Below are positions 1,316 through 29,337 of a stretch of DNA of 29,731 nt, one piece after another. The stretch lies in the IMG/VR virus record IMGVR_UViG_2908572912_000004; one strand, 5' to 3'. A program made the position numbers and the translations under genes. Source of the DNA: a virus. Its lineage: Duplodnaviria > Heunggongvirae > Uroviricota > Caudoviricetes. Under the pieces are notes generated by a model, which was not told the DNA's origin, did not search any database, and worked only from the letters and a program-made list of their open reading frames with translations. Position 1 is the stretch's first letter. Every line of letters starts with the position of its first letter.

Positions 1316-1334
1316 TAGTTAGTGTGGCTTTTAG

Positions 1335-1586
1335 TCAAGTAAGATGACGTCTTGGTCTCGCTGATGCCTGGCGCTCAATCCAGCGATCAATTTCTTCCAG
1401 GTTGTAAAAGCATGGACTGTTATCCCATGGCATACCGTCATGAGCGACATGCTTATATTCCCTTCCTTCCATAAACGATTTTTCCCGGGCCTTTTTTAAC
1501 GTACCTTTTTTTATTCCTTTCAGCGCAATTAACTGCTCTTCGGATACCCATTTGCCGGGAGAGACAATCATGATTACTTCGCTCAT
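1335..1586 (-). CDS. Excisionase-like (Xis) DNA-binding protein
   Basis: 83-aa ORF immediately upstream of int on the same strand; contains a GREY segment resembling the lambda Xis winged-helix core. Assignment by position and motif only. Confidence 0.6.
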   Translation of the reverse strand: MSEVIMIVSPGKWVSEEQLIALKGIKKGTLKKAREKSFMEGREYKHVAHDGMPWDNSPCFYNLEEIDRWIERQASARPRRHLT

Positions 1587-1658
1587 CGATTTCTTTATCT
1601 CTTACATCAGACGAGCGCCGGTTGCAGAATACCAGTCACAACCGGCGACAGTTGAACA

Positions 1659-4130: not shown

Positions 4131-4223
4131 TTTGTTTTAACCTCATGACAGATTTAAGGATGAACAAATCCCTGCCATTGCTGGCATATAAGAATGAAAC
4201 CGGATATTTATTACGGAACTGTT

Positions 4224-4415
4224 TTAAAGACCTGCCGGGATTTCGATATTATCCTGGTGAATAACTTTATCGACCGGGTAACAGTTACCGGGAATTTTCT
4301 GTTCGGTTGCTGCAGTCATACACTCCTGCATTGTCCTGTGAACACTGACTGCAATATCAACTGGCACTCCGGAAACAAGAAAAACTGTCAGAACAAGCGC
4401 AAATGCTGAATTCAT
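4224..4415 (-). CDS. ydfD: YdfD-like small membrane/lysis protein (63 aa)
   Basis: Internal Met start (MNSAFALVLTVFLVSG...) gives 63 aa with an N-terminal hydrophobic segment; ATGA overlap with the dicB stop; position downstream of dicB as in Qin. Confidence 0.75.
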   Translation of the reverse strand: MNSAFALVLTVFLVSGVPVDIAVSVHRTMQECMTAATEQKIPGNCYPVDKVIHQDNIEIPAGL

Positions 4416-4600
4416 TGTGCACATCCTTTTGGCATCAGACGTAAACGAGCCAGCATTGAAACAATGCATATTTTATTTAATAGCTCCCGTTCTTGTTTTC
4501 TCTTGTTAATGGCATCTTCAGTAAATACAGGGTTACTGATAGTGACACCAATTTCAAAACAACCTTCAGACGTATTAACGTTTGGTAATAACGTTTTCAT
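4412..4600 (-). CDS. dicB: Cell division inhibitor DicB (62 aa)
   Basis: Internal Met start gives MKTLLPNVNTSEGCFEIGVTISNPVFTEDAINKRKQERELLNKICIVSMLARLRLMPKGCAQ, which I recognise as DicB; lies directly downstream of DicF. Confidence 0.85.
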   Translation of the reverse strand: MKTLLPNVNTSEGCFEIGVTISNPVFTEDAINKRKQERELLNKICIVSMLARLRLMPKGCAQ

Positions 4601-4774
4601 TATCGCGTCCTCAACAATGAATTTTGTGATGCAGTGCCTGGTGCCTCCAGGTGACGTTAACCAGTTAACAATTAACGTCGGATACAGAGAATCCACCCAT
4701 AACACTGTTTTTGGTTTTAACTGTTCCGCGTGCGCTTAGCCGTATTCACCGCATCACAAAATTCACTTTAAAAA

Positions 4775-4827
4775 GGGCGGCAGAGCAGTCACGGAGTAAA
4801 ACTGATACCGCCAAACGTCACCAGAAA
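4775..4827 (-). ncRNA. dicF: DicF small regulatory RNA (ftsZ-targeting antisense sRNA)
   Basis: Reverse complement of 4775-4827 reads TTTCTGGTGACGTTTGGCGGTATCAGTTTTACTCCGTGACTGCTCTGCCGCCC, identical to the 53-nt DicF sequence as I recall it; followed by a U-run (to 4770) forming an intrinsic terminator. Confidence 0.9.
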
Positions 4828-5086
4828 ATTGATAACAGAGGGCGTTGCAGCGGGGTTGTCACTTAAGCGTATGGTCAACCTGACAACCCGGTGTCCTCAA
4901 CGGGGAAGGAATAACCCCGCCATACTTACCGCCGCGCCATTTTGCGGGTTGCCACAACCGGAAGCGCACGGTCGAATTAAATTTAACGACACCGTACAGT
5001 GAGACGAACTTCGCCGTGCGCTTTCGTGTTGTGTGCCTGCTTTTAACCACGTCAGGCGAGGTGGTATCCTTAAAATCACCACAGTT

Positions 5087-5662
5087 TTAAGGATTCATTA
5101 AGCAATGTCGCAACCACCAATAAATCCGCTTAAGAACATGAAAATTGATTACTGGTATAAAGCTCTTACAGTTGTTGGCGCTGCGTTGTTTGTCTTTAAT
5201 GGAACGTCTTTTTTTGACAGATATCCCGTTGTTCCATTGGGTTTTTTGTCCTCCGGCATCTTTTTTATTGGTTTGGGGGAGTGGATTAATCACCCTCTCA
5301 TAGTGAGATTTATTGGTCCTGGAGTTTGGACTCGTGGATATAATCGTTCTTCGTGCGCACTCGGTATCATCTTCGACATACTTGGTTGTTTCCTGATTGT
5401 TACAGGAGTCGTCAAGTTCTTCTGATGTAAAACCGCAAATGGGGCACGTAACGGGAATTTTGAAAAGCGTTTCTCCGGGTTCCAGAACAAAATTTTCTGC
5501 GGTCTGATTTTGCTTCTCATATTTGTGCTCCGCGTCATTGTGAGAGCACATTCTTATTCTGAGTGCCTGTTTAAACTCACTGAAGCTGAGAGCTTCTTCG
5601 CCTTCGGCAAGGCCTTCGAAGTATTCTTCGTAAGCCTTTTCCATGATTGTGTCGAAATCCAT
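5087..5662 (-). CDS. Hypothetical acidic protein with CxxC motif (early-left operon, ydfB/ydfC position)
   Basis: Start at the MDFDTIMEKAYEEYFEG Met with SD AGGTGA 5 nt upstream, 1 nt after the ydfA-like stop. N-terminal ~95 aa looks protein-like; C-terminal half is K/N/Q/R-rich and fully overlaps an antisense membrane-like ORF (5105..5425), so the true extent is uncertain. Confidence 0.45.
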   Translation of the reverse strand: MDFDTIMEKAYEEYFEGLAEGEEALSFSEFKQALRIRMCSHNDAEHKYEKQNQTAENFVLEPGETLFKIPVTCPICGFTSEELDDSCNNQETTKYVEDDTECARRTIISTSPNSRTNKSHYERVINPLPQTNKKDAGGQKTQWNNGISVKKRRSIKDKQRSANNCKSFIPVINFHVLKRIYWWLRHCLMNP

Positions 5663-7229: not shown

Positions 7230-8175
7230 ACGCCCACTGGTTATAAACACACAGCTTGCGATGAAGATTGGCTTAAATGAAGCCATTGTGTTGCAGCAGT
7301 TGCATTACTGGTTGAGAGATACCAATTCCGGCATGGAATGTGATGGTGTTCGCTGGATTTACAACACAACGGAACAATGGCTGGAACAGTTCCCATTCTG
7401 GTCAGAGTCAACGTTAAAGCGCGCGTTTGCAAGTCTGAAAACGCTGGGGCTTTTGCGTTGTGAAAAGCTCAATAAATCAAAGCGCGATATGACCAATTTC
7501 TACACGATCAACTACGGGAGCGAGCTTTTAGATGGTGGCAAATTGAGCGAATCCATCGGTTTAAAATGCGCCGCTCCATCAGGTCAAAATGACACGATGG
7601 AAGAGGTCAAAATGAAACGCTCCATTGGTTCAAAACGACCCAATGTCATCGGGTCAAAATGGCCTGATGATCTTACAGAGAATACAACAGAGATTACTAC
7701 AGAGAATAAAAACACTTTTCGTCCGGAAGCTTCGCAACCGGACCCGCAGACCGCTGAACAGGATTTTTTAACCCGGAACCCCGACGCGGTTGTGTTTAGT
7801 GCGAAAAAACGCCAGTGGGGTAGCAGGGAGGATTTGGCGTGTGCGCAGTGGATTTGGGGGCGGATCGTGAACCTTTACGAACAGGCTGCCAGCGACGATG
7901 GAGAGATCATGCGACCAAAAGAGCCTAACTGGACAGCCTGGGCCAATGACGTGCGCACAATGCGGATGCTGGATGGCAGAAGCCACAGACAAATTTGCGA
8001 AATGTTTGGTCGGGTACAGCGAGATCAATTCTGGGTAAAAAACATCATGAGCCCGTCAAAACTCCGCGAAAAATGGGACGAACTGGTCATCCGCCTGGGA
8101 CGTTCACCTGTAAAGCGTTGTGTGAATCATATTTCTGAACCGGATACAGAAATTCCGCCTGGTTTCAGGGGATAA
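7210..8175 (+). CDS. Phage replication initiation / replisome-organizer protein (O-like)
   Basis: Start at MSLLFAERPLV (ATG 7210); N-terminal region resembles phage replisome-organizer HTH domains (LQQLHYWL...); acidic/Thr-rich linker; position after cro/cII-like genes. Confidence 0.6.
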   Translation: MSLLFAERPLVINTQLAMKIGLNEAIVLQQLHYWLRDTNSGMECDGVRWIYNTTEQWLEQFPFWSESTLKRAFASLKTLGLLRCEKLNKSKRDMTNFYTINYGSELLDGGKLSESIGLKCAAPSGQNDTMEEVKMKRSIGSKRPNVIGSKWPDDLTENTTEITTENKNTFRPEASQPDPQTAEQDFLTRNPDAVVFSAKKRQWGSREDLACAQWIWGRIVNLYEQAASDDGEIMRPKEPNWTAWANDVRTMRMLDGRSHRQICEMFGRVQRDQFWVKNIMSPSKLREKWDELVIRLGRSPVKRCVNHISEPDTEIPPGFRG

Positions 8176-8215: not shown

Positions 8216-8635
8216 GTGGCAAAAGTTTTTACACAAGAAGAGCGGGAAAAAATTAAAGGGCAGGTGGTGGAACTCGTACGCCAGAGTGGGCGCGAGACGT
8301 TACGACAACTGGAAGCTAAAACTGGGGCAACAAGATATCTGATGAGCGTTCTGGCCAGAGAGCTGGTTGCCAGTGGCGATGTATACAGCTCTGGTTACGG
8401 GTTATTCCCGTCTGAACAGGCGCGTAAGGACTGGCAAAACGCCCGCAAAAAACTCTCGAGGGCAAAGGTGAAGAAACCTGCTGTGGTTGATCCGGACCTT
8501 ATCTGGTCATTACCTGACGGAGAAATACGTCGCTACGACAGTCGTCTAAACATAATCTGTCGCGAGTGCCGGAAGGCAAGGAGAAGCAGGCTATTGTTAA
8601 CATCAAGCTGTAATGTCCCCTTTGAACCATTCTAA
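8216..8635 (+). CDS. Hypothetical protein (139 aa, GTG start, strong SD)
   Basis: GTG start 4 nt after AGGAGG; C-terminal CxxC (ICRECRK); followed within 6 nt by a terminator-like hairpin. May be intact or C-terminally altered by the adjacent transposase element. Confidence 0.45.
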   Translation: MAKVFTQEEREKIKGQVVELVRQSGRETLRQLEAKTGATRYLMSVLARELVASGDVYSSGYGLFPSEQARKDWQNARKKLSRAKVKKPAVVDPDLIWSLPDGEIRRYDSRLNIICRECRKARRSRLLLTSSCNVPFEPF

Positions 8636-8640
8636 AATGT

Positions 8641-8667
8641 CCCCAGACAATTCTCTGGGGGATTTTT
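8641..8667 (+). terminator. Intrinsic terminator-like hairpin immediately upstream of the transposase start
   Basis: CCCCAGA-caattc-TCTGGGG stem-loop followed by GATTTTT; the 3' arm contains the GGGGGA Shine-Dalgarno-like sequence of the transposase gene. Confidence 0.5.
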
Positions 8668-8668
8668 C

Positions 8669-10009
8669 ATGATCAAAGAGACTGTTACGATGAGTCATAA
8701 GGAACTCCACCGACTTCAGATTATTCAGGAGTCAATTAATCGACATATTACTCAGGAACAAGCTGCGGCACGCATTGGCATTTCTATTCGGCAGGTTAAA
8801 CGTCTGGTGCAACGGTATAGAAATGAAGGGCCTTCTGGTCTGGTTTCCCACCGACGTGGAAAGCGTCCTAATAATTCCTTTTCTACTGAATTCAGAGCAA
8901 CAGTAATTTCACTCCTCAAAGGCCGTTACGCTGATTTTGGACCTACGTTTGCGTGCGAAAAATTGCGCGAGATACACGGTTTATCTTTATCCGTTGAAAC
9001 TCTCAGAAAGTGGATGATAGAAGAGGGGTTATGGCGTGAACGCCGTCGTAAAATTGCCCGTATATATCAACGCCGCATGCGACGACCATCTTACGGTGAA
9101 CTGATCCAGATTGATGGCTCACCTCATGACTGGTTTGAAAATCGAGGCCCCAGATGTACACTGATCGTTTTCATTGATGATGCCACCAGTGCGTTGATGG
9201 CGTTGCGTTTTGTGCCTGCTGAAACAACCCGGGCTTACATGGAAACCCTCCGGGGTTACCTTAATGATCATGGCGTACCGCTCGCTCTCTACTCTGATAG
9301 ACACAGTATATTCAGGGTAAATAACCCAGAGCGGGAAGGTGAGCTGACCCAGTTCACTCGTGCGATAAAGACACTGGGCATCGAGCCAATCCATGCCAAC
9401 AGCCCGCAGGCAAAAGGGCGGGTAGAGCGCGCCAATCAGACACTACAGGACAGGCTGGTCAAAGAAATGCGGCTTCAGAATATCAGTGATATTGAAACAG
9501 CAAATGCATGGTTGCCGACCTTTATTGAAGCCTATAACAACCGGTTCGCTACGTCGCCTCGTACTACTGATAATGCTCATCTTGATGTGCACCATTCTGA
9601 AGAGGAACTGGGTTATATCTTCAGCCTACAGGCGAAGCGCGTTCTGTCTAAAAATCTCACTTTCCAGTACAAAAGCAGTGCGTTTCAGGTACGCAGTGAG
9701 GGCCGGGGATATCGACTTAGGCATTCGGTTGTTACTGTATGTGAGAACTTTGACGGTGAAATTAACGTTCTGTATGACGGGAAAGCGCTGGGCTGGGAAA
9801 AGTATGTTGATGGCCCGGAGCCTATACCACTGGATGATGAAAAGAGTGTCCATGAACGAGTGGATAATGCCCGTATTGATTTACGCTCAAAATACTATGT
9901 TAAATCTAAAGCTGACCATCCCTGGCTTACGCGCCGAACGCAAAGTCATCAGCAAGTTAAGCCCCCGAAGTTACCTAAAAAGAAGCCTGATCCCGATAAA
10001 ATAGATTGA
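8669..10009 (+). CDS. DDE transposase with N-terminal HTH and integrase-core (rve-like) domain (IS481/ISNCY-like)
   Basis: 446-aa ORF; N-terminal HTH (AARIGISIRQVKRLVQRY); D...D...E-type core segments (IQIDGSPHDW, VFIDDATS, HANSPQAKGRVERANQTLQD). Family call by recall only. Confidence 0.85.
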   Translation: MIKETVTMSHKELHRLQIIQESINRHITQEQAAARIGISIRQVKRLVQRYRNEGPSGLVSHRRGKRPNNSFSTEFRATVISLLKGRYADFGPTFACEKLREIHGLSLSVETLRKWMIEEGLWRERRRKIARIYQRRMRRPSYGELIQIDGSPHDWFENRGPRCTLIVFIDDATSALMALRFVPAETTRAYMETLRGYLNDHGVPLALYSDRHSIFRVNNPEREGELTQFTRAIKTLGIEPIHANSPQAKGRVERANQTLQDRLVKEMRLQNISDIETANAWLPTFIEAYNNRFATSPRTTDNAHLDVHHSEEELGYIFSLQAKRVLSKNLTFQYKSSAFQVRSEGRGYRLRHSVVTVCENFDGEINVLYDGKALGWEKYVDGPEPIPLDDEKSVHERVDNARIDLRSKYYVKSKADHPWLTRRTQSHQQVKPPKLPKKKPDPDKID

Positions 10010-10403
10010 AACCAAGATCGATTCGGTTGAGTGCATATCCATTCATAGGGTAGATTCTTAAGTCGCGTTTCTGGTGTTCATTTTCGGGTGGTTTGTTACT
10101 TGTTTTACCGGGGATATGCCAGAAACGCGCTGAGTCAGTCTGGGCGGTGCGCGTAATGAGGCGTTATGGTAAATAGCCTATGCTAATGTCCGCTAAGAGC
10201 AAGAAGCGGAAGTTGGCAGTTTTGTGGACTGTCCCCACAAAAGTGACTACAGAAATAGTTGCAATTCATAATTGATCATGGGTTGTCAGTTAAACTCGTG
10301 GCGATTTAAATAGACTAATTGGGAGTGCGTCCATTACTTATATCTTGTAATGTTAACTATCAGAAATGATACAAAGATAATATGTCTTTAAAGAAAAGGC
10401 TGA

Positions 10404-10431
10404 TGGCGAAAAGTGGCCCGATGAGGGCCAC
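10404..10431 (-). terminator. Intrinsic terminator downstream of flxA
   Basis: Inverted repeat GTGGCCC-gatga-GGGCCAC with an adjacent plus-strand A-run (T-run on the minus strand), about 15 nt beyond the flxA stop. Confidence 0.55.
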
Positions 10432-10445
10432 AATACGGCTGTCAC

Positions 10446-10778
10446 TTAGACGTAAATATCAATGGTGCCAGCGGTATTTGTATCGTCTTTTTTCTCTTCT
10501 TTTTTATCAGGCTGAACTGTCGCGTCTTTATTCTTTTTCTCTGCCTGCTGCCTTAACAACTGCTCCAGTTGAGCCCTGAGGCTTTCAATTTGCTTCTGTA
10601 CCAATGCAGCCATTTCTTTTTTCTGCTGTGTCGTCATCCCCTCTTCCGATGAGATTTTCCCAAGCTTTTCAGTCAGCACCTGAATTTGTCTTGTGATTTT
10701 GGCTATTTCTGATGTTCCTTCCGGGGCGGAGTTGTTTGAAATAACGGTTGAGGTATTTCCCTGAATTGTGACAGACAT
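10446..10778 (-). CDS. flxA: FlxA (FliA-regulated prophage protein), 110 aa
   Basis: Sequence MSVTIQGNTSTVISNNSAPEGTSEIAKITRQIQVLTEKLGK... recognised as FlxA; coiled-coil-like Q/E/K-rich region; SD AAGGAG upstream. Confidence 0.85.
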   Translation of the reverse strand: MSVTIQGNTSTVISNNSAPEGTSEIAKITRQIQVLTEKLGKISSEEGMTTQQKKEMAALVQKQIESLRAQLEQLLRQQAEKKNKDATVQPDKKEEKKDDTNTAGTIDIYV

Positions 10779-15328: not shown

Positions 15329-15628
15329 AAAAATTCCTTAATACTGATAACTTGGCGCACTATACACACGTTCCTGAAGAAAGCTATAGTTTTTTGATGG
15401 GGTTGAAGATGGCTGGATGTCTAAAATAAACATTGCTTCATATGTTCAACTATGCGTTAATGATTGCGTCGGTTTGAAGAACAGACGATATACGAAGTAG
15501 TTTACTAAAGCAGTTCTCATTTCAGGTGTTATTCACTTATTCCTTCTTTGAGTCTCTCCAATTAAGTACGAAGTCGTTTCTGTTATGCAAACCATTTATG
15601 CCGAAAGGCTCAAGTTAAGGAATGTAGA

Positions 15629-15844
15629 ATGTCAAATAAAATGACTGGTTTAGTAAAATGGTTTAACGCTGATAAAGGTTTCGGCTTTATTTCTCCTGTT
15701 GATGGTAGTAAAGATGTGTTTGTGCATTTTTCTGCGATTCAGAATGATAATTATCGAACCTTATTTGAAGGTCAAAAGGTTAGCTTCTCTATAGAGAGTG
15801 GTGCTAAAGGTCCTGCAGCAGCAAATGTCATCATTACTGATTAA
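15629..15844 (+). CDS. cspB: Cold-shock protein CspB (71 aa)
   Basis: [51 protein letters not shown]... with RNP1/RNP2 motifs (KGFGFI, VFVHF); about 300-nt AT-rich 5' leader typical of cold-shock genes. Confidence 0.9.
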
Positions 15845-16125
15845 AATTCATCGCTCGTCTGTATACGATAACGAAGAAGGCTGATGCCTGAGTAGAGATA
15901 CGGACAGAGTAGTGAATATTGGATCTCTTTAATAAAAAGTAAGGAGGTCCAATACATGAAACAATGGCTAGCATATTTGGCAAAATCTTAATCAGGAAAA
16001 GTATGCTAACCATTGTGGTGAAGTGCAGGTTTGCTGCATGAATAGTTTTACAGCAGAAGCTAACTGCTGGCATGGCAAAACAAAGTGCGTAAGTGGATGA
16101 CTCCCACAAAAAGCACCACAATCTC

Positions 16126-18153: not shown

Positions 18154-18515
18154 GGTAATATTAAATCGGAACATTTACATCGCGGAATGTAAAATTTGAA
18201 TAAAAAGGACTCTTCCATGAGCCAAAATTCCTGAAATCTTAAGGGTAAGATAAAAGGTCTTAATCAGAATGACACGTTTTATTAATAAATAAAGCTATTC
18301 TTTCATTGCTGTGTTTTTCTTTACAAAAGTAATCCTTGCTATGGGTGGTTAATCATGCGTTAATGGTGTTCTGGTTTGTTACAAATTTATCTGAAGCAGT
18401 CATTGTTATAATTTTATTATTTGTACCTCTTGAGATTTCCTTGTTGGTTTTTCTCTCTGATATTTTTTTTCGGACCATTCTGCCCAAGGGCTAATTTCTT
18501 CAAAAGGTAATAATT

Positions 18516-18728
18516 ATGTCTAACAAAATGACTGGTTTAGTGAAATGGTTTAACCCTGAAAAAGGTTTTGGTTTCATCACGCCGAAAGATGGCAGCAAAG
18601 ATGTGTTTGTCCATTTCTCAGCAATTCAGAGCAACGATTTCAAAACATTAACTGAGAATCAGGAAGTTGAATTTGGTATTGAGAACGGACCTAAAGGTCC
18701 TGCCGCTGTTCATGTAGTGGCGCTTTGA
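18516..18728 (+). CDS. cspI: Cold-shock protein CspI (70 aa)
   Basis: [70 protein letters not shown] recognised as CspI; RNP1/RNP2 motifs present. Confidence 0.9.
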
Positions 18729-18932
18729 GGTAGACAATATTACAAACCATATTCACTTTAGATGCCCGTGTTGTCATGGTTCCCAGTATAGAACATCATC
18801 TTTTGATGTTTCTGACATGAATCCTTTCGGGGCAAAATGTATCTTTTGTAAATCAATGATGATTACATTTGATAATATTTCACAATACTTAAATGCCAGC
18901 CGTCTGTCGTTGGATTTAAAAAAGTGAAAATG

Positions 18933-19726: not shown

Positions 19727-20158
19727 TTAGCGTGGTAAGATCTGTGTAGTTTTCTGGATGCTTTCAGTAATTTTCTGGATGCTTTCAGTAAATAGTAATG
19801 AGTTATCAAAGGCATAGTAATATCTTTGGTGTTCCTGGATATTTGTAACCCATCGGAAAACTCCTGCTTTAGCAAGATTTTCCCTGTATTGTTGAAATGT
19901 GATTTCTTTTGATTTCAACTTATTATAGGAGGTCTCTATAAGATGTTTGTTTCTGGAGAATTTAACATTTACAACCTTTTTGAGTCCTTTTACTAACACT
20001 ATGTTGTCGTTTTCTAACACAATGTGAATATTATCTGTGGCTAAATAGTAAATATAAAGTGAGACATTGTGACGTTTTAGCTCAGAATAAAATAATTCAC
20101 AGTTTAAATCTTTACGCACTTGATCGAATATTTCTTTAAAAATGGCAGCCTGAGCCAT
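19727..20158 (-). CDS. ydfO: YdfO-like DUF1398-family prophage protein
   Basis: Start at the [11 protein letters not shown] Met (SD GAAGG 7 nt upstream); the C-terminus carries a tandem 7-aa duplication (ESIQKIT x2) from a perfect 21-bp DNA duplication. Confidence 0.65.
19750..19791. repeat. Perfect 21-bp tandem duplication (x2) inside the ydfO-like coding sequence
   Basis: TTTTCTGGATGCTTTCAGTAA occurs twice back to back (19750-19770 and 19771-19791), in frame. Confidence 0.9.
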
Positions 20159-20458
20159 TGGTAAACCTTCCATGTGATACGATGGCGCGTAGTTAGCATT
20201 ATCGTGTTTATTGTTTCAATCTGGTCTGACCTCTTTGTGTTTTGTTGATGATTTATGTCAAATATTAAGCCTGTTTTTAATGAATAGTGTTGATTGCGTA
20301 ACAAAATTGAGCCTTGCTGGCATCCAGGAGGGATATGCAACCGACAGATGTATGTAAGGTCGATGTACTCAAACTTTCATACTTTTCCTCTTTTATGCAG
20401 TAAGATTTGAAGTAATATTTTAACCGCTAGATGACGAGCAAACGCATGGAGCGACAAA

Positions 20459-20665
20459 ATGAATAAAGAACAATCTGCTGATGAACTCTCGTTGGATCTG
20501 ATTCGTGTAAAAAATATGCTTAATAGCACCATTTCTATGAGTTACCCGGATGTTGTAATTGCATGTATAGAACATCAGGTGTCTCTGGAAGCATTCAGGG
20601 CAATTGAGGCAGCGTTGGTGAAGCACGATAAGAATTCGAAGGATTATTCCCTGGTGGTTGACTGA
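20459..20665 (+). CDS. Hypothetical small protein (68 aa)
   Basis: ATG with SD GGAG 7 nt upstream; [68 protein letters not shown]; a fully antisense ORF of equal length (20420..20626) is probably its shadow. Confidence 0.5.
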
Positions 20666-20990
20666 GCACCATAACTGCTAATCATTCAAACTATTTCACC
20701 TGTGACAGAGTCAATATCGCATTCTGTCACTGTCAGGCTAATACAGAGCTGCAATTCAACTACTGCAATGTCCTCGTAATTAGGTGAATTTACAATATCG
20801 TCCTGTTCGGATGCCGGTTGCATTGCTGAAGATGAGGCATTTATGGTTCGCATATTTTCCCCTCATGCTCGTCAGTCCTGTGCGTAGGAAGAAACAGGAC
20901 ACTCACACTAATTTGTGTGGGCATGCTGTGATGTCCTTCTGAATTATTCCTATGCCATTATGTAAAGCGCTGTATCAGATGCTCATCACG

Positions 20991-21014
20991 GCTGTCAGGC
21001 TGTCAGGCTGTCGG
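20991..21014. repeat. 8-bp tandem repeat x3 (GGCTGTCA GGCTGTCA GGCTGTCG) at the edge of a GC-rich island upstream of the terminase genes
   Basis: Direct reading; followed by GC-rich partially symmetric sequence (GGTGGGGGCCCCTGCCACGGGG) and then an AT-rich block; candidate packaging (cos-like) region. Confidence 0.8.
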
Positions 21015-21207
21015 GTCCTCCCGGTGGGGGCCCCTGCCACGGGGCGGGAGCGTCGCGGAAAAAGGCTAGTTTTTGCATTTCCATGGCGGCGGCAGCATGT
21101 TTGGTAATTTATTGATAATTAAAAGTTATTTATCTTTTTACCTGTACAATATTTTTTTCTCCCTGTCATTAGACCAGTTTACAATTAATTGAAATATATA
21201 AATAAAC

Positions 21208-21765
21208 ATGATTTTCACCTGCCAGATGGAGTTGCTTATGTCAAATGTGAGCGGGATCGGTGATGCTTATTACTGGAGTGTTTTTAAAATCGCTGAGGCC
21301 TTTGGGCTTCACCGGGACACAGTAAAAAAACGGCTTCTCGCGGCCAACACTCCTGTGGCTGCGACTGTCAGGGGGAACCCCGTTTACGCCCTGCAGCATG
21401 TCGGGCCAGCCCTGTTTAGTGTGAAGCATGAGGCAGCAGACTCTGTTCATGATCCATCCCGTATGGAGCCGAAAGAGAGAAAGGACTGGTACCAGTCTGA
21501 AAATGAAAGGATCAAGCTGGAAAAGGAGCAGCGAAAACTCATCCCCGTTGATGAAGTAGTCATCGTCTATTCGTCCATGAGAAAGGCTGTCGTCCAGGTT
21601 CTGGAGACAATTCCGGATGTTCTTGAACGCGATTGCGCCCTGACTCCTCAGGCCGTCGGCGTTGTACAGCAGGCAATTGATGACCTGCGATACACTCTTC
21701 AGGAAAAATCCTACGAGGCTTGTGCTGCTGAATTAATTCCTGATGAGGAAGGAGAGAGTCTCTAG
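21208..21765 (+). CDS. Putative terminase small subunit (DNA-packaging, HTH-containing)
   Basis: 185-aa ORF (alternative start at MSNVSGIGDAYYW, 21238) immediately upstream of the terminase-large-like ORF; N-terminal HTH-like segment, acidic C-terminus. Family assignment by position and general resemblance. Confidence 0.6.
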   Translation: MIFTCQMELLMSNVSGIGDAYYWSVFKIAEAFGLHRDTVKKRLLAANTPVAATVRGNPVYALQHVGPALFSVKHEAADSVHDPSRMEPKERKDWYQSENERIKLEKEQRKLIPVDEVVIVYSSMRKAVVQVLETIPDVLERDCALTPQAVGVVQQAIDDLRYTLQEKSYEACAAELIPDEEGESL

Positions 21766-21773
21766 GAGGAATA

Positions 21774-24700
21774 ATGGGTTTTTCATCAGCCCGAAATTTG
21801 GGAAGGGACATATCGGCAGGATTTTCCCCACCACGTCGCATGCCGATTTCGGAGGCTGTTAAAAAATTCATGCGTGTTCCCAAGGGGGCTGGTAACTCGG
21901 TGCCATGGGATCCTGAACTGACACCCTACATCATTGAGCCCATGAACTGCCTGGCATCGCGTGAATACGATGCGGTGATTTTTGTTGGTCCTGCGCGAAC
22001 AGGGAAGACCATTGGTCTGATCGATGGATGGATTGTCTATACCATCGTTTGCGATCCTTCGGACATGCTCGTTGTGCAGATGACCGAAGATAAGGCCCGC
22101 GAGCATTCTAAAAAGCGCCTCGACAGAACGTTTAGAAGCAGTGCGGCGGTAAAGAAAAGAATGAGTCCACGTCGTAACGACAATAATGTCCATGATAAGA
22201 CGTTCAGGGATGGCTCGTTCCTTAAAATTGGTTGGCCCTCGGTCAACATTATGTCGTCGTCGGATTACCGGTTTGTCGCCTTAACCGATTACGACCGTTT
22301 TCCGGAGAATATCGACAGCGAGGGTGATGGTTTCTCCCTGGCCTCAAAACGTACCACCACATTTATGTCCGCCGGGATGACTCTGGTGGAGAGCTCGCCG
22401 GGACGTGACATCTGCGACAGCAAATGGCGACGTAAGTCGCCTCATGAAGCGCCACCGACGACTGGTATTCTTTCCCTTTACAATCGTGGTGACCGCCGCC
22501 GCTGGTACTGGTCATGTCCGCACTGCGGTGAATATTTTCAGCCAGCCATGGATGCCATGACCGGCTACCGTAATGAACCGGATCCCTTTAAAGCCAGTGA
22601 GGCGGCGTATCTACTTTGCCCGCACTGCAGCGGCATTATCACTGCGGAGAAAAAGCGTGAGCTCAATAGTGCAGGAGTCTGGTTGGGTGAAGGTCAGGTC
22701 ATTGATCGTAACGGCAACGTTTCCGGTGAACCGCGCCGCTCCCGTATCGCCAGTTTCTGGATGGAAGGCTTCCCGCCATCGCATGCCGGGACCATCACCG
22801 TGTATGAAGACTCACAACCGGGTACGCTGAATGATTTTCTCGGTGCCATGACGGAGGATGATGCCCGTCCGGAGGCACTGCGCCGCTTTGAACTGATGGT
22901 GGAAGAGGTGGCGCGTAACGCGTCCGCAGTGGCACAGAACACGGCAGCCGCGAAGAAGTCAGCCAGCGATGCCGGCACATCAGCCCGTGAGGCGGCAACC
23001 CATGCGACTGATGCTGCAGGCTCAGCACGTGCAGCCAGCACATCAGCCGGGCAGGCCGCTTCGTCGGCTCAGTCAGCGTCTTCCAGCGCAGGAACGGCAT
23101 CAACAAAGGCCACTGAAGCATCAAAAAGTGCTGCCGCTGCAGAGTCCTCAAAAAGCGCGGCGGCTACCAGTGCCGGTGCGGCGAAAACGTCAGAAACGAA
23201 TGCTGCAGCGTCACAAAAATCTGCAGCCACTTCTGCATCCACCGCGACCACGAAAGCGTCAGAAGCTGCCACCTCAGCCCGGGATGCGGCGGCCTCAAAA
23301 GAGGCAGCGAAATCATCAGAAACGAGCGCAGCCTCGAGCGCCAGTAGTGCAGCCTCTTCGGCAACGGCGGCAGGAAATTCCGCGAAGGCCGCAAAAACGT
23401 CTGAGACGAATGCGGATAACAGCGCACAGGCGGCAGCGGCCTCACAAACTGCATCGGCAAACTCCGCGACAGCAGCCAAAAAATCAGAAACCAACGCGAA
23501 AAATAGCGAGGCAGCAGCAAAGAGCAGCGAAACTAATGCTAAATCCAGTGAAACAAACGCGGCGAAATCTGCAGCGGACGCACTTAATTATCGCAACCAG
23601 GCACAATCCGTTGTTGGTAACAATATTGGTCTTGGTGAAGTTGCCATGACCTGCACTGATATCTCTGTTGAGCCATCAGGTTATATTGGATTTATCAGGA
23701 TTTACATCTCAGCGAAAGGTTATCCATCAGTAGCGTCTAGTGCCGGGGATAATCTTATTTCTGGTTATATAGTTAGATCAGAAGTGTCAACAAAAAGATA
23801 TTCCGGTCTATTTGTTGGTTCAGATACAAAATCATTGTATTCGTACATTTACAGCCAAAGTTCTGGCCCGCAATGGATACGTCATACCCGCAGAGATGAA
23901 TTAAGCCGCTTTGGTCAAAATGAATCAACAACTCGTATGTATGGTCCAACTGGTGATCGTTTCTTTGAAATCCATACTAACGGGAGTTGGGGGGTTTATG
24001 ATTCTTCTTCTGGACAATGGTCTCCGTTAGGTTTAGCCCAGGGCGGTACTGGTGGAAGAACTATCGAGCAAGCACGTGCGAACTTGCGGGTAATGTATGA
24101 GCAAAAAGCTGGCCTTGCTAATACTGACCTAAACACCCTTACCGGTGAATATTCTGGTTTCTATCAACAACCAACGAGCGCTTACGCAACAGAAGAATTA
24201 AATTACCCAATCGGTCTGGCGGGCGCTTTAATAGTGCTCCAAACGAGAGCCAACACTGCTTCTTCCTGCGTTCAGGTGTACTACCCTTATAATAATCCGG
24301 GAATTACTTATAGACGAATATATGAAGGAGGTAGCGGTACCTGGTCTGAATGGAAGAGAGATGTATCAACAGAAAGGGTTGAAGAGGGAAAAGAAACAAC
24401 TTACGTATATTCTACGTATTCTTCAGGCGCACCACGCTTACAGGTTTCCAAATCTGGTTTGTGGGGTTGTCATAATGGCACTGGCTGGTTGCCATTAGCT
24501 GTTGGGCAAGGAGGTACAGGTGCGACAACAGTAGAAGATGCGCGAAACAACTTAAGTCTTGGCGAAAGTAGCGCAGTTAAATTTAAAAACCTTACTTTAA
24601 CCGAAGCGCTCGACACGACATTAGGACTGCTTACAAAAACAGGACGAGACTGGAACACGCAGCATACTGATAACATTAATAAATTTATACCAATTGCAGG

Positions 24701-25856
24701 CAGTACAAACGGCCCGGCAGGTTCTATGGTTCTTGGTGGCATTCATGTTCAATTTAGTAAAAATTATGCTGTGCAGTTCGGAGGCCGCAATTCCGGTTTT
24801 TGGGGAAGAACAATTGAAAATGGAACGACGCAGGAATGGAAGAAATTACTAACAGTAGACGATCTCAATTCATCTACCGATCTTGCTGTCAGGTCATTAA
24901 CCACATCTAACCCGGTAAAATCTGGCGGAGGGCGAATTGATGTCCTTGGAAGCACGTCAGACTATAGCAAAATGGATTGCTTTGTACGTGGGTTTGATAG
25001 CACCGGTAATTCTCTCGCGTGGGCGTTGGGTTCATCAGTCGGCGTAAGTAAGATGCTGTCGCTAAAAAATTTCTTTAGCGGAGCTGAGATACTGTTAAAT
25101 GGTAATGACGGCGCGGTTCAACTCAAAACAGGTGCTGTTAACGGGGCTAAAGCGCAGGCGCTCACTATCAACAAGGATGAGGTTAACTCAACTGTTGATT
25201 TAACTCTTACAAAACAAACAGGGACTGGAAATCGTTTTGTTTTACAGAACTTAGGTAATACAGAACTATCATTTGCCGCAAAAGTATGGGGATCAAGTGA
25301 TCGACAAAACGTTTTTGAGGTTGGAACGTCTGCTGCGTATCTGTTTTATGCGCAAAAAACGTCAGCAGGCCAGTTGTTTGATGTAAATGGCGCTATTAAT
25401 TGCACAACGCTGAATCAGTCATCAGACCGCGACCTTAAAGACGATATTCTCGTTATCAGCGACGCGACGAAAGCAATCCGTAAAATGAACGGATACACCT
25501 ACACGCTCAGGGAAAACGGGATGCCTTATGCTGGCGTTATTGCACAGGAAGTAATGGAGGCGATACCAGAAGCTGTGGGATCGTTTACTCATTACGGTGA
25601 AGAGTTGCAGGGACCAACGGTTGACGGCAATGAATTACGTGAAGAAACACGTTATCTGAATGTTGACTACGCCGCCGTGACGGGGTTACTTGTTCAGGTC
25701 GCCCGTGAAACAGATGGTCGCGTTACCGCGCTGGAAGAGGAAAACATAACGCTACGTAAAAATCTGGCAACAGCAGGCACCCGGATCAGCACTCTGGAAA
25801 ATCAGGTAAGCGAACTGGTTGCACTTGTCGGGCAGTTAACAGGAAGCGAACATTGA
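21774..25856 (+). CDS. In-frame fusion ORF (1360 aa): terminase large subunit N-terminal ATPase region (aa 1 to ~331) joined to a side tail fibre protein with C-terminal intramolecular-chaperone (peptidase S74-like) domain
   Basis: N-terminal part: Walker A GPARTGKT, CPHCGEYF and LLCPHCSG motifs paralleling lambda gpA-type terminases. From about nt 22767: FPPSHAGTITVYEDSQPGTLNDFL..., which I recall as the N-proximal conserved segment of lambdoid Stf proteins, then long Ala/Ser/Thr-rich KSxETNA-type repeats. C-terminal ~145 aa (from nt 25419): SSDRDLKDDI...GVIAQEVMEAIPEAV, typical of self-cleaving tail-fibre chaperone domains. Confidence 0.85.
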   Translation: MGFSSARNLGRDISAGFSPPRRMPISEAVKKFMRVPKGAGNSVPWDPELTPYIIEPMNCLASREYDAVIFVGPARTGKTIGLIDGWIVYTIVCDPSDMLVVQMTEDKAREHSKKRLDRTFRSSAAVKKRMSPRRNDNNVHDKTFRDGSFLKIGWPSVNIMSSSDYRFVALTDYDRFPENIDSEGDGFSLASKRTTTFMSAGMTLVESSPGRDICDSKWRRKSPHEAPPTTGILSLYNRGDRRRWYWSCPHCGEYFQPAMDAMTGYRNEPDPFKASEAAYLLCPHCSGIITAEKKRELNSAGVWLGEGQVIDRNGNVSGEPRRSRIASFWMEGFPPSHAGTITVYEDSQPGTLNDFLGAMTEDDARPEALRRFELMVEEVARNASAVAQNTAAAKKSASDAGTSAREAATHATDAAGSARAASTSAGQAASSAQSASSSAGTASTKATEASKSAAAAESSKSAAATSAGAAKTSETNAAASQKSAATSASTATTKASEAATSARDAAASKEAAKSSETSAASSASSAASSATAAGNSAKAAKTSETNADNSAQAAAASQTASANSATAAKKSETNAKNSEAAAKSSETNAKSSETNAAKSAADALNYRNQAQSVVGNNIGLGEVAMTCTDISVEPSGYIGFIRIYISAKGYPSVASSAGDNLISGYIVRSEVSTKRYSGLFVGSDTKSLYSYIYSQSSGPQWIRHTRRDELSRFGQNESTTRMYGPTGDRFFEIHTNGSWGVYDSSSGQWSPLGLAQGGTGGRTIEQARANLRVMYEQKAGLANTDLNTLTGEYSGFYQQPTSAYATEELNYPIGLAGALIVLQTRANTASSCVQVYYPYNNPGITYRRIYEGGSGTWSEWKRDVSTERVEEGKETTYVYSTYSSGAPRLQVSKSGLWGCHNGTGWLPLAVGQGGTGATTVEDARNNLSLGESSAVKFKNLTLTEALDTTLGLLTKTGRDWNTQHTDNINKFIPIAGSTNGPAGSMVLGGIHVQFSKNYAVQFGGRNSGFWGRTIENGTTQEWKKLLTVDDLNSSTDLAVRSLTTSNPVKSGGGRIDVLGSTSDYSKMDCFVRGFDSTGNSLAWALGSSVGVSKMLSLKNFFSGAEILLNGNDGAVQLKTGAVNGAKAQALTINKDEVNSTVDLTLTKQTGTGNRFVLQNLGNTELSFAAKVWGSSDRQNVFEVGTSAAYLFYAQKTSAGQLFDVNGAINCTTLNQSSDRDLKDDILVISDATKAIRKMNGYTYTLRENGMPYAGVIAQEVMEAIPEAVGSFTHYGEELQGPTVDGNELREETRYLNVDYAAVTGLLVQVARETDGRVTALEEENITLRKNLATAGTRISTLENQVSELVALVGQLTGSEH

Positions 25857-26030
25857 TATCCTTCAAGCCCTGAAGGAGGCTGTTCCTGGTACGTTCAGAC
25901 TGTTGTTGAGCTGGAAATCGCAACGGAGGAAGAAACTTCGTTGCTGGAAGTCTGGAAAAAGTATCGGGTGTTGCTGAACCGTGTTAATACATCAGTAGTA
26001 CCGGATATTGAATGGCCAGCACTGCCGTAG
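25857..26030 (+). pseudogene. Tail fibre assembly (Tfa) gene 3' remnant, in frame directly after the stf stop codon
   Basis: 57 codons with no start codon: ...[40 protein letters not shown], matching the conserved C-terminus of Tfa chaperones as I recall it. Confidence 0.6.
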
Positions 26031-26127
26031 GGTAAAACATATAAATTCTATAATTAGATGTATCTTTCCATTTACGGCAAGGAAGGGGGCTTGGAAGACG
26101 TAAAGCATCTCACACCGAGATTATTTT

Positions 26128-26718
26128 TTATATGTCAGGTGTCTGAAGTTTTGCTTTGGCTCTTAAAATGGTTTGCCGCGAGGTTTTGAATTCCCGGGCA
26201 ATGGCACTTATACTTACACCTGACTTAATTCGTTCGAATACCACCTGTTTCTGTTCTTCATTTAACACAGGTGGTCGACCAAAACGTTTCCCTGCGCCGC
26301 GGGCTCTTACTATCCCGGAATGAATGCGTTCAAGTAAAAGGTCTCGTTCAAATTCAGCGACTGCTGAAATTACTTGCATCATCATTTTTCCTGTTGGACT
26401 GGTCAGGTCAATGCCACCCAATGCTAAGCAATGCACTCTGATACCTGTTTCGGTCAGTTGTTCCACTGTTTTCCTGATATCCATTGCATTACAACCAAGG
26501 CGATCCAGTTTTGTCACAATCAATTGATCACCACATTTCAGGCGAGTAAGCAACCGGTTAAAACCAGGACGCTCACTGGTTGCTGCTGAGCCGCTAATGT
26601 GTTCTTCGATTATTTGCTGAGGTTTGATTTTAAAACCTGCACTTTCGATTTCCCGGCGTTGATTTTCGGTGGTCTGATCCAGCGTTGATATCCGACAGTA
26701 AGCAAAAATTCGAGACAT
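26128..26718 (-). CDS. pinQ: Small serine recombinase (invertase/resolvase family, Pin-like), 196 aa
   Basis: N-terminal catalytic motif YCRISTLDQ (catalytic Ser), resolvase-type core, C-terminal HTH ([18 protein letters not shown]). Confidence 0.9.
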
Positions 26719-27034
26719 AGTGAGACTCTATACGAAATTGGTGTTCATATCATAATGCATCTCAGAAAATAATTATGATTATTTTTGTGCATATTTGTAT
26801 GTACACGTTCGAAAATAAACGAATGCGTATGCAACCCCGTAATTTTGGTGAGACCCAAAATCGATTTTGTGAAAAATGGCTTTAACTCGGTTTGTTTTTC
26901 GAGTTCCGGGCGGACTCAAGGAAGAAGAATAGTGTTGCGTGTTATTTTAACCAGATTTCAAGTTGTTTGGTCGTGGAAAAGTGGAGCAAAATGTTGTTAA
27001 AGTGGAAAAATGATAAAAAAGTAAGTTTATTATA

Positions 27035-27268
27035 TTACATTTTACCATTTAAATTTTGGTTGTCTTTAAGAACTGATATCGCTGTTTGTAATAATTCTTT
27101 GTTATCCAGCCATGATTTTTTCTTTATGTTTCCTTCAATGTAATCAAGCAATGTTCTGGTATTGATAGGTCTTCCCTGTTTTGCTACTTCCACTACAGCA
27201 TCGCCTAGGATAATTCTTACTTCAGGAAGCTGCGCAGGGAACCACTTTAGGGTGTCTTTTGATTTCAT
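27035..27268 (-). CDS. ydfK: YdfK-like small protein (77 aa)
   Basis: Internal Met start (MKSKDTLKWFPAQLPEVRIILGDAVVEVAKQGRPINTRTLLDYIEGNIKK...) with SD AAGGA 8 nt upstream; track ORF extends 11 codons further upstream. Confidence 0.7.
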   Translation of the reverse strand: MKSKDTLKWFPAQLPEVRIILGDAVVEVAKQGRPINTRTLLDYIEGNIKKKSWLDNKELLQTAISVLKDNQNLNGKM

Positions 27269-28053
27269 GAAGATATTCCTTAAAATATTATTGATTTTCA
27301 TTGCGATATTGTATGTCTGATTCAGGATATGTTGACTTATACATCGGTTTTGTCTGGGTTATTGGATATGCCAATCCCTAATTTTATTAGGGCATGACTA
27401 AAAATGCTGAATATGATAAGGAGAGATGTGATTATCAGTATGCTGTTCATATAGCCTCGAATTAGTAATGTGTTATATATGATATAGTTGACAATTTTTA
27501 TCCTGGGTGTTCTTAAAGTTCGTAGATAAACATTGTCGTTTCAGGTATACAAGAATGCTAACAGGTGGCAGCAAAAATCAGGCGGTTTATGGCGCAAGCT
27601 GAAGCGGCAACTGCAAACTATCTTATGCAGAGACTCTACACGGATTGGGTTTAAAAGTATACATAGATAACAGTTTTTATCTGAAAAAGAAAAATATCAA
27701 GGTGATATAGCCTATATGCCTTTGATGCGGAGGAATGAATGTGATGGGAGTGATGTATCTGAATAGTTGAAAAACCGCAGACACGCCTTATGCAAGAACG
27801 TGCTGCGGTTGGCTGGTAAATTTTTCGATAGTGTGAGTATTGAATGATTTCCAGCCGTTCTTGATTTTACGCATAAATCCATGAAAAAACTACTTATCTG
27901 TTGGGGAGTTTTTTTGGGGCATATATGGGACAGAAATAGGCCCCAGATAGACACTGAGATCGAACTTAGGATGCTTTTTAAAAAATGCAACTATCTGAAA
28001 AAACCTAGAAAACGCCAAGGAAACCACAGGATGGGAAAAAACACCTGTGAATT

Positions 28054-29337
28054 ATGGATTTCCAGTTATATTCGCTCGGCGCAGCGTTAGTGTTTCATGA
28101 AATATTTTTTCCTGAATCATCAACGGCAATGGCGTTAATTCTGGCAATGGGAACCTACGGTGCAGGTTATGTGGCGCGTATTGTCGGAGCATTTATTTTC
28201 GGCAAAATGGGCGACAGAATAGGGCGTAAAAAAGTGCTCTTTATTACCATCACCATGATGGGGATCTGTACCACCTTAATTGGTGTGTTACCGACCTATG
28301 CACAGATTGGTGTTTTTGCACCCATCTTGCTGGTGACGTTGCGTATTATTCAGGGGTTGGGTGCAGGTGCGGAAATTTCCGGTGCCGGTACGATGCTGGC
28401 GGAATATGCGCCAAAAGGTAAGCGCGGAATTATCTCCTCATTTGTGGCTATGGGAACTAACTGCGGAACCTTGAGCGCAACGGCAATCTGGGCCTTTATG
28501 TTCTTCATTCTCAGTAAAGAGGAACTGCTGGCGTGGGGATGGCGTATACCGTTCCTGGCGAGCGTTGTCGTGATGGTCTTTGCTATCTGGTTGCGTATGA
28601 ATCTGAAAGAAAGCCCGGTCTTTGAGAAGGTTAACGACAGTAACCAACCGACAGCAAAACCTGCACCTGCTGGTAGCATGTTCCAGAGCAAATCCTTCTG
28701 GCTGGCAACAGGGCTGCGTTTTGGTCAGGCGGGTAACTCCGGGTTAATTCAGACTTTCCTTGCAGGCTATTTAGTGCAGACGTTATTGTTTAACAAAGCA
28801 ATTCCAACAGATGCATTGATGATCAGTTCGATTCTCGGCTTTATGACCATTCCGTTCCTTGGTTGGTTATCCGATAAAATTGGTCGCCGGATCCCGTATA
28901 TTATTATGAATACCTCCGCGATTGTGCTGGCATGGCCAATGCTTTCTATCATTGTAGATAAAAGCTATGCCCCGAGCACCATTATGGTTGCACTGATTGT
29001 GATTCATAACTGTGCGGTGCTGGGATTATTTGCTCTGGAAAACATTACCATGGCAGAAATGTTCGGCTGTAAAAACCGCTTTACCCGGATGGCTATTTCT
29101 AAAGAAATTGGTGGTCTTATCGCTTCCGGTTTTGGTCCTATCCTGGCGGGTATTTTCTGCACCATGACGGAATCCTGGTATCCGATCGCCATTATGATCA
29201 TGGCATATTCAGTGATTGGTTTAATCTCTGCGCTGAAAATGCCAGAGGTGAAAGACCGTGATTTAAGTGCGCTGGAAGACGCTGCGGAAGATCAACCGCG
29301 TGTTGTAAGAGCTGCGCAACCTTCCAGAAGTCTGTAA
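28054..29337 (+). pseudogene. ydfJ: MFS (metabolite:H+ symporter-type) transporter gene lacking its 5' end, split by the prophage insertion
   Basis: 427-aa ORF with multiple TM helices and the MFS loop motif GKMGDRIGRKK; expected first TM and N-terminus are absent, so the phage-host junction lies just upstream (about 28000-28055). Confidence 0.7.

Follow-up and report, generated by a model that had tools for sequence, protein, structure and literature searches.

A probable exchange of the tail-fibre tip module in a Qin-type lambdoid prophage, with a remnant of tfa left beside pinQ

In the Din-family inversion switches, such as the G segment of Mu with Gin, the C segment of P1 with Cin and the P segment of e14 with PinE, a small serine recombinase adjoins the tail-fibre and Tfa genes, and Gin, Cin, Hin and PinE share about 60% identity or more with one another and can replace each other functionally. 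Among endosialidases and tail fibres with a C-terminal S74 chaperone, it is established for endoNF and T5 pb1 that the catalytic Ser and Lys lie five residues apart at the domain boundary. The E. coli K-12 prophages Qin (stfQ'-tfaQ-pinQ-ydfK-ynfT, in ydfJ) and Rac (stfR-tfaR-pinR-ydfK-ynaM) carry a Tfa-dependent fibre tip with an intact Tfa of 191 aa. PinQ and PinR have been reported by one laboratory, largely upon overexpression, to act in trans by inverting the P segment of e14; in the same study PinQ is 38% identical to PinE, BLAST revealed no inversions in Qin or Rac and PinQ is documented to lack a segment in cis (Kirigo et al. 2025, PMC12529663). In a published experiment, recombinants of lambda with Rac and Qin through the stf/tfa homology arose at about 2e-6, and one third of those with Rac had their crossover point in tfa (De Paepe et al. 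2014, PMC3945230).

The window analysed here is a whole stretch of 29,731 nt of a Caudoviricetes record (IMGVR_UViG_2908572912_000004), which very probably represents the right arm of a defective Qin-type lambdoid prophage of E. coli inserted in ydfJ. It shares with K-12 Qin and Rac the insertion site (ydfJ/ydfI), the presence of DicF, a pinQ that is 98-99% identical, a tfa-pin gap of 97 nt and a right arm that is 99.4% identical from position 26003. It also carries ydfK and ynfT, the usual right-arm genes of Qin/Rac-type elements, which precede the interrupted ydfJ (28054-29337). Unlike Qin and Rac, it has an S74 cassette, its tfa is reduced to the final 44 or so codons, and the internal deletions differ too. 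Head and tail genes are all missing and the prophage is hence defective. The right-hand features are as follows.

26031-26127, no strand assigned: convergent intergenic spacer of 97 nt, from the tfa stop to the pinQ stop, equal in length at loci with an intact tfa.
26128-26718, minus strand: pinQ, an intact gene for a small serine recombinase of 196 aa with Pfam Resolvase and HTH_7 domains, annotated as pinQ in locus L001.
27035-27268, minus strand: ydfK, placed by ORF calls and by mapping the annotation of L001 and L004 onto the window.
27337-27450, minus strand: ynfT, which follows ydfK and was mapped from the same two annotations.

On the fibre side, the features are these.

21774-25856, plus strand: fibre ORF of 1360 aa, an in-frame fusion of the N-terminal part of terminase GpA to Stf, with an S74 chaperone domain as its C-terminus.
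22762-22768, plus strand: gpA-stf deletion junction, a 7-nt microhomology (TGGAAGG) where BLAST segments 20001-22768 and 22762-23413 against L009 overlap.
23414-25893, plus strand: cassette exchanged relative to Rac/Qin-type loci, comprising distal shaft, receptor-binding tip, S74 domain, stop and spacer, with no match to L008, L009 or L004.
25422-25853, plus strand: C-terminal intramolecular chaperone domain of 144 aa, from the predicted autocleavage residue Ser1217 to a heptad-rich helical tail.
25857-25895, plus strand: spacer of 39 nt (13 codons), not derived from tfa, lacking a start codon and present as two haplotypes; the Pfam alignment begins after it, at residue 14.
25896-26030, plus strand: Tfa 3' remnant, the last 44 codons and stop of a tail-fibre assembly gene, a pseudogene with the conserved C-terminal domain and a missing N-terminus.
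25986-26002, plus strand: right-hand crossover interval between mEp460-type cassette and Qin-type flank, within the Tfa remnant, placed by the distribution of mismatches against mEp460 and Qin.

Along the fibre ORF, Pfam recognizes GpA_ATPase (aa 40-303), phage_tail_N (profile positions 64-134 at aa 330-400) and Peptidase_S74, and the Stf portion begins at about Stf codon 64, as judged by Pfam and by BLAST against L001 and L009. Since the deletion fused gpA to stf, the fibre cannot now belong to a virion; the exact junction, as a single piece, was found in none of 5426 complete E. coli genomes. The assignment of the stf C-terminus to a peptidase-S74-type chaperone, made in the first-pass annotation, is borne out by a Peptidase_S74 match (PF13884) at aa 1217-1268 (nt 25422-25577) that scores 45.3 bits against a gathering score of 22, with the Ser-x4-Lys motif SDRDLK opening the domain at nt 25422 (aa 1217-1222, Ser1217/Lys1222). 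In an alignment with the chaperone part of phage S16 gp37 (PDB 6f45), SDRRIK stands opposite SDRDLK, and the last 150 aa of the ORF are identical to mEp460 Stf. It resembles the chaperones of K1F endoNF, T5 pb1 and S16 gp37 in its above-threshold Pfam match, in the Ser-x4-Lys at the domain start and in its C-terminal place with a helical tail, but sequence similarity to the solved examples is limited to about 70 residues, and autoproteolysis at Ser1217 is a prediction from sequence. An NCBIfam search returned no family for the fibre or for the Tfa remnant.

Beyond the TGA that ends the fibre ORF (25854-25856), 57 in-frame codons remain open up to a TAG (26028-26030). All 57 had been ascribed to Tfa; the open frame and the lack of a usable start hold, but only about 44-46 of these codons are Tfa-derived, the first 13 being spacer. 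Residues 14-57 match Pfam Caudo_TAP (PF02413) at positions 87-130 of 131 (E 8.5e-18, 65.2 bits, cut-off 22.1). A complete gene would have a start codon and an N-terminal fibre-binding domain; because the start and the N-terminal 86 profile positions are absent (intact TfaQ has 191 aa), the remnant is a pseudogene, and its counterpart in L001, L002 and L003 is labelled by PGAP 'tail fiber assembly protein, incomplete, missing N-terminus'. No ORF of at least 30 aa was called in the post-stop region, where no in-frame start-type codon precedes a TTG at codon 29. An extension of Tfa upstream in a shifted frame ('ILQALKEAV') was rejected, as the Tfa motif lines up from codon 14 onwards in the main frame. 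An AAGGAGG can be read directly from the spacer at about 25877-25884. Scanning of 25700-27000 revealed no terminator and only weak promoter-like matches without evident meaning, and Rfam and tRNA scans gave nothing in the fibre-tip/remnant region.

The frame shared by fibre and remnant looks accidental, since the chance of such sharing is one in three and all three polymorphisms between the two spacer haplotypes are non-synonymous in the fibre frame. In total 36 distinct post-stop sequences were found, whose differences consist of multi-nucleotide haplotypes resembling Tfa alleles and of alternative Tfa C-terminal endings. Over 47 codons the frame is open in 31 of 32 remnant haplotypes, the other one being frameshifted, and the variable sites are distributed over codon positions as 9:9:14, which in a codon-position selection test is only weakly like imported coding diversity. 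The haplotype pattern fits repeated crossovers with resident tfa genes. In L002, decayed and stacked Tfa remnants are present.

The proposal that a tail-fibre tip module was exchanged, with a Tfa remnant left behind, is supported by the course of homology along the locus. Relative to Rac (L008) and Qin-type loci (L004 and L009), about 2.5 kb is replaced: homology ends at 23413 and returns at 25894 inside the tfa 3' end, with the cassette occupying the place of distal stfR and most of tfaR in Rac (about 2.96 kb there). This cassette is matched by mEp460, CD09 and strain 504239. Against mEp460, positions 25400-25985 are 99.8% identical with a single mismatch, followed by divergence; against K-12-type Qin, there are 19 mismatches in 25894-26002 and 11 in 26003-27808. 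The cassette is accordingly of mEp460 type and the flank of Qin type.

The junction is not peculiar to this locus. Distal fibre, S74 domain, stop, spacer and Tfa remnant recur with an identical junction in the viable phages mEp460 (Stf F853_gp20, NC_019716), Ayreon and PhiR70_1, mEp460 being 98.7% identical over 25400-26016. In mEp460, the fibre is full-length, and dinI and a tyrosine integrase, not pinQ, come after the remnant; the window has a fibre joined to a terminase fragment, in a defective prophage. The identical junction also occurs in 802 of the 5426 complete E. coli genomes, at 1381 places with at most 5 per genome, annotated as a partial tfa pseudogene, and in 50 IMG/VR contigs, where the downstream contexts are of at least 5 kinds. 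For 44 of the IMG/VR loci the flank downstream could be matched to a reference context, and pinQ follows in only 12 of these. The S74 tip and remnant lack a downstream pinQ in mEp460, Ayreon and CD09, the last having only a frameshifted recombinase-family pseudogene about 1.7 kb from the remnant. Since tip and remnant travel independently of pin, the junction is older than the window locus and unrelated to pinQ. An exact 24-mer scan of the GTDB set with one genome per species, in which an exact match was required, found none, and the junction has thus not been seen outside E. coli-type collections. In Tritos-type phages the Tfa remnant is shorter, stands behind an unrelated gene and has another 5' junction, which shows that the same arm served in an independent replacement; the idea that the post-stop spacer is a relic of a downstream donor gene common to both arrangements was rejected, as the two spacers are unrelated. 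In mEp460_ev081, a Rac-type stf-tfa-pinR-int block stands in place of the mEp460-type block.

PinQ of the window differs from K-12 PinR by 2 and from K-12 PinQ by 4 of 196 aa, and its Ser11 lies within the conserved R-I-S-T-x-D-Q motif. With at least 98% identity, an orientation convergent with tfa and a position upstream of ydfK, it belongs to the PinQ/PinR proteins of Qin/Rac-type elements. By tblastn, PinQ is found at 98-99% identity in 11 phage records representing 10 distinct phages, and the layout of tfa 3' end, pin and ydfK is shared by most of the 4498 matching genomes and also by viable phages such as Tritos. NCBIfam gave only sub-threshold matches for PinQ. The distance between remnant and recombinase gene, noted as about 100 bp, is measured as 97 nt, and precisely this gap separates the tfa and pin stops at the intact stf-tfa loci tfaR-pinR of Rac and tfaQ-pinQ of Qin, where there is no invertible segment. 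The 97-nt spacer contains no terminator-like or crossover-like site.

The recombinase had been noted to lack an obvious invertible segment, and this observation stands. In 21000-28100, inverted repeats occur only as chance-level pairs, as they do at the Rac and Tritos loci, which have no flanking inverted crossover-site pair either. The gix/hix-type core (AAACCNNGGTTT-type) at 2 mismatches gave 13 matches against 18 expected, and the e14 pix 16-mer a single chance-level match with 3 mismatches at 5268; neither has a match in or near the region from the stf tip to pinQ. A 20-nt repeat of 80% between pinQ and ydfK recurs in the window, Rac and Tritos, which reflects nothing more than the 98% identity of these three loci throughout the region. 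The locus thus has the small serine recombinase of a Din-type inversion system adjoining tail-fibre and Tfa genes, but unlike the Din-family switches it has neither adjacent paired inverted crossover sites of about 26 bp nor a duplicated inverted Sv/U set, and the reported action of PinQ is in trans, on another prophage (e14).

It had been suggested that an ancestral Mu/P1/e14-like invertible Sv/U segment lay between stf and pin and was replaced by the S74 cassette, orphaning pinQ without a substrate. The best PDB match of PinQ is indeed Gin (E 1.9e-28, against 1.7e-21 for gamma-delta resolvase), pinQ adjoins tail-fibre genes as do gin, cin and pinE, and local inverted sites are absent. Against this stand the unchanged gap at intact loci without any invertible segment, the many contexts in which S74 tip and remnant occur without pinQ downstream, and an identity of only about 35-38% to Gin-type invertases (Mu, D108 and other gin genes), which places PinQ outside the close kinship of Gin, Cin, Hin and PinE. 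As the flank from 26003 onwards is 99.4% identical to that of intact loci, nothing was removed on the pin side. Replacement of an invertible segment is hence very improbable, and pinQ, which keeps its usual position, most probably had no local invertible segment and was unaffected by the swap.

Retention of the remnant as an expressed or functional element, be it a Tfa oligomerisation domain made by TGA read-through or internal initiation or an element acting in cis, would draw on the frame shared with stf, on the near-universal openness of that frame among haplotypes and on the AAGGAGG in the spacer. This motif is followed by no in-frame ATG, GTG or TTG before codon 29, however, and any extension made by read-through would be attached to a domain that would be lost by cleavage in any case. 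Diversity imported from live tfa alleles would leave the frame open even without selection, and the non-synonymous spacer polymorphisms, the frameshifted haplotype, the decayed stacked remnants of L002 and the lack of a notable promoter, terminator or Rfam element speak against a function as well, which we regard as very unlikely. A purely local decay, in which, after the prophage had gained an S74 tip, deletions trimmed its own tfa in place, independently of other elements, would suit a prophage that is clearly decaying, as the gpA::stf fusion deletion attests, but is hardly credible given that the stop-spacer-remnant junction is base-for-base alike in viable phages, 802 genomes and 50 viral contigs of unrelated contexts. 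The junction was thus inherited and not made at the window locus, and the remnant is, on the comparative evidence, a mosaic recombination joint and not a local accident.

We therefore favour, with considerable confidence, a history in which an mEp460-type S74 cassette was swapped in via the tfa 3' end with pinQ left untouched, followed by the gpA-stf deletion. The S74 domain, as an intramolecular chaperone, would bring the fibre to its trimeric state and then release itself by cleavage at Ser1217, so that no separate Tfa chaperone would be needed. In an ancestral lambdoid phage, the cassette would have been joined once, probably by an illegitimate join, to the last 45 or so codons of tfa, a single origin that we infer from the identity of the stop-spacer-remnant junction. 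The resulting unit, which runs from distal Stf through the S74 domain, the stop and the 39-nt spacer to the tfa 3' remnant, would then spread among lambdoid phages and prophages by homologous recombination, with conserved proximal stf as the left arm and the conserved tfa 3' end as the right arm. At the window locus, the right crossover fell at 25986-26002, beyond which all is ordinary Qin DNA, and in this phage group pinQ would never have had a local invertible segment. A later deletion at the 7-nt microhomology would have fused terminase gpA to stf. It is conceivable, although rather doubtful, that the conserved tfa 3' end persists, also where Tfa can be dispensed with, as a portable right-hand docking homology through which lambdoid phages and prophages could exchange tip cassettes, owing to lineage-level selection for evolvability and not to simple recency; the 36 mosaic haplotypes, the at least two independent 5' junctions (window-type and Tritos-type) and the stacked remnants in L002 fit such a reading.

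The arrangement is ordinary, and its sequence, pseudogene annotation, carrier phages and the behaviour of PinQ are already public; its importance goes little beyond housekeeping. For annotation, it cautions that a serine recombinase beside tail-fibre genes does not imply a local invertible switch. The mapped boundaries, with the left arm in proximal stf and the right arm of about 130 nt in the tfa 3' end, offer natural places to splice when the host range of lambdoid side fibres is engineered. As a textbook case of modular phage evolution, the locus would illustrate how a self-chaperoning tip displaced a chaperone-dependent one, with the conserved end of the chaperone gene serving as the recombination arm.

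The S74-tipped fibre of the window and the Tfa remnant behind it lie in E. coli chromosomal DNA, within a defective prophage, a lambdoid element of the Qin type inserted in ydfJ, in which no head and tail genes are left. Features of this setting are as follows:

Left part of the window: tyrosine integrase, exonuclease-VIII-like gene, DicF, Q antiterminator, lysis genes and two cspA-type leaders
4775-4826, minus strand: DicF sRNA
15468-15860, plus strand: cspA-type thermoregulator leader
18370-18755, plus strand: cspA-type thermoregulator leader
26128-26718, minus strand: pinQ, with Resolvase and HTH_7 domains
Right end of the window, in order: pinQ, ydfK, ynfT, truncated ydfJ, ydfI

DicF and the cspA-type leaders are as expected where a prophage of the Qin type carries cold-shock gene morons. 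The fibre is part of a 1360-aa chimera (21774-25856), in which the N-terminal ~330 residues of terminase GpA are fused in frame to Stf from about codon 64, and comparison with related loci places the join at a 7-nt microhomology, TGGAAGG (22762-22768). This exact junction was found as a single piece in none of 5426 complete E. coli genomes. The gpA'/stf junction of strain TB06052 differs from it and keeps 347 nt more. Strain 504239 is 99.6% identical to the window over 22762-27931 apart from insertion elements; it carries two elements that the window lacks, an IS2 between ynfT and ydfJ' (window 27932-28053, positions 9133-10463 of its locus L001) and, upstream of lom, one of the IS66 family.

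A Peptidase_S74 domain closes the fibre (aa 1217-1268; Pfam profile score 45 bits, cut-off 22), and the Ser-x4-Lys motif SDRDLK, starting at nt 25422, gives a C-terminal domain of 144 aa, confirming the S74 type assigned in the first-pass annotation; the S74 domain can be aligned to gp37 of phage S16 (PDB 6f45), in the chaperone region of that protein. That annotation also described 57 in-frame Tfa residues after the TGA, lacking a start codon and lying about 100 bp from the recombinase gene. Indeed, 57 open codons follow the TGA (25854-25856) in the fibre frame, ORF calls and sequence inspection found no usable start codon for the remnant, and the gap from its stop to pinQ measures 97 nt. However, only some 45 of these codons derive from Tfa: residues 14-57 align with the final 44 positions of the Tfa profile, which has 131 (E 8.5e-18), whereas the first 13 codons are a spacer unrelated to Tfa. 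The frame common to fibre and remnant is best read as accidental, given its one-in-three chance. Three polymorphisms occur in the spacer, each of them non-synonymous in the fibre frame, and a read-through product would only lengthen the domain that is predicted to be cleaved off.

The proposed exchange of the tip module, with a Tfa remnant left behind, is supported and can be delimited more sharply. Proximal stf (22762-23413) retains ~94% homology to Rac and to two Qin-type loci with intact tfaQ, and from 23413 no homology to these three is found until 25894, inside the tfa 3' end; a 2.5-kb cassette (23414-25893) thus occupies the place of distal stfR and most of tfaR in Rac. Only one position differs from phage mEp460 in 25400-25985, with divergence beyond, while comparison with K-12-type Qin shows 19 differences in 25894-26002 but only 11 in 26003-27808. 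Since the sequence is mEp460-like through 25985 and Qin-like from 26003, the right crossover falls in 25986-26002, within the last 45 nt of the remnant. Inheritance of the S74/remnant junction from an mEp460-type phage lineage is supported by these comparisons.

The stop-spacer-remnant junction is base-for-base identical in the viable phages mEp460 (98.7% identity over 25400-26016), Ayreon and PhiR70_1. In the set of 5426 genomes, a probe of 261 nt spanning the junction matched 1381 places in 802 genomes, up to five per genome, and only 143 genomes hold the whole S74-remnant-pinQ-ydfK stretch. Among 50 IMG/VR contigs with the exact junction 24-mer, the downstream context was assignable in 44, being pinQ in 12 and one of four other contexts in 32; of the remaining six, five had too little downstream sequence and one resembled no reference context. 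By this distribution, the junction was evidently not created at the window locus. PGAP names the fibre 'S74 family peptidase' and treats the remnant as a partial pseudogene for tail-fibre assembly. This is a common arrangement, present in sequenced viable phages and annotated before, and an ordinary case of a known kind.

The suggestion that an invertible cassette was lost in the swap, leaving pinQ orphaned, does not hold, since Qin and Rac loci with intact tfa have the same 97-nt tfa-pin gap and no invertible segment. Viable phages, Tritos among them, share this layout, and 11 phage records, representing 10 distinct phages, gave tblastn matches to PinQ at 98-99% identity. Inverted-repeat and site searches for the paired crossover sites that the suggestion called for found no such repeats in the window region, Rac or Tritos. 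A 20-nt inverted pair, 80% complementary, joins 26281-26300 (inside pinQ) and 27229-27248 (inside ydfK); it is most likely due to chance, recurring in Rac and Tritos only because the entire region is ~98% identical. Window PinQ is 98-99% identical to K-12 PinQ/PinR, but only 35-38% to Gin-type invertases. According to one group, working largely with overexpression, the 1797-bp P segment of prophage e14 is inverted in trans by PinQ and PinR, and their BLAST surveys are reported to have revealed inversions only in e14 and none in Qin or Rac (Kirigo et al. 2025, PMC12529663). Absence of a segment in cis is hence a documented property of PinQ.

The 50 contigs carry 36 distinct post-stop sequences, differing in blocks that resemble alternative Tfa alleles and in alternative Tfa C-terminal endings, and only one of 32 remnant haplotypes is frameshifted. 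In Tritos-type phages, a separate S74 fibre gene is followed by a small membrane-protein gene, a Tfa remnant that is shorter and differs in its 5' junction, and PinR, an independent replacement via the same arm, the tfa 3' end. At the Qin site of strain WCHEC115106 (L002, NZ_CP043334.1), three Tfa C-terminal remnants lie on one strand within 1.5 kb, suggesting serial cassette replacements that each left one remnant:

Tritos, 1160-5430: 790-aa Stf, 93-aa ORF, separate 346-aa S74-tipped fibre, 97-aa predicted membrane protein, short Tfa remnant, PinR
L002, 7106-7237: Tfa remnant
L002, about 7822-7926: Tfa remnant, decayed
L002, about 8564-8658: Tfa remnant, decayed (decayed sequence including TTLLALWIKYRVLLNCVDT*)

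Some 1.1 kb past the S74 stop, on the remnant's strand, two further loci (L013, L041) have a second, apparently full Tfa C-terminal coding stretch, and may carry an extra tfa, or a tip with tfa, downstream.

In experiments, lambda captures Rac and Qin markers by homologous recombination in exactly these stf/tfa homologies, with the crossover in tfa for one third of Rac recombinants (De Paepe et al. 2014, PMC3945230). In mEp460_ev081 (LR597641.1), Rac-type distal stf, intact tfa, pinR, ydfK, int, xis and exoVIII replace the mEp460-type block, unlike its parent mEp460 with an S74 tip, remnant, dinI and a different integrase; comparison of the two shows that the whole arm was exchanged with an element of the Rac type. 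Tfa reportedly combines a variable N-terminal fibre-binding domain with a conserved C-terminal domain, which would explain why the conserved DNA is the tfa 3' end. As judged from these sequence patterns, the remnant fits the role of a working recombination joint.
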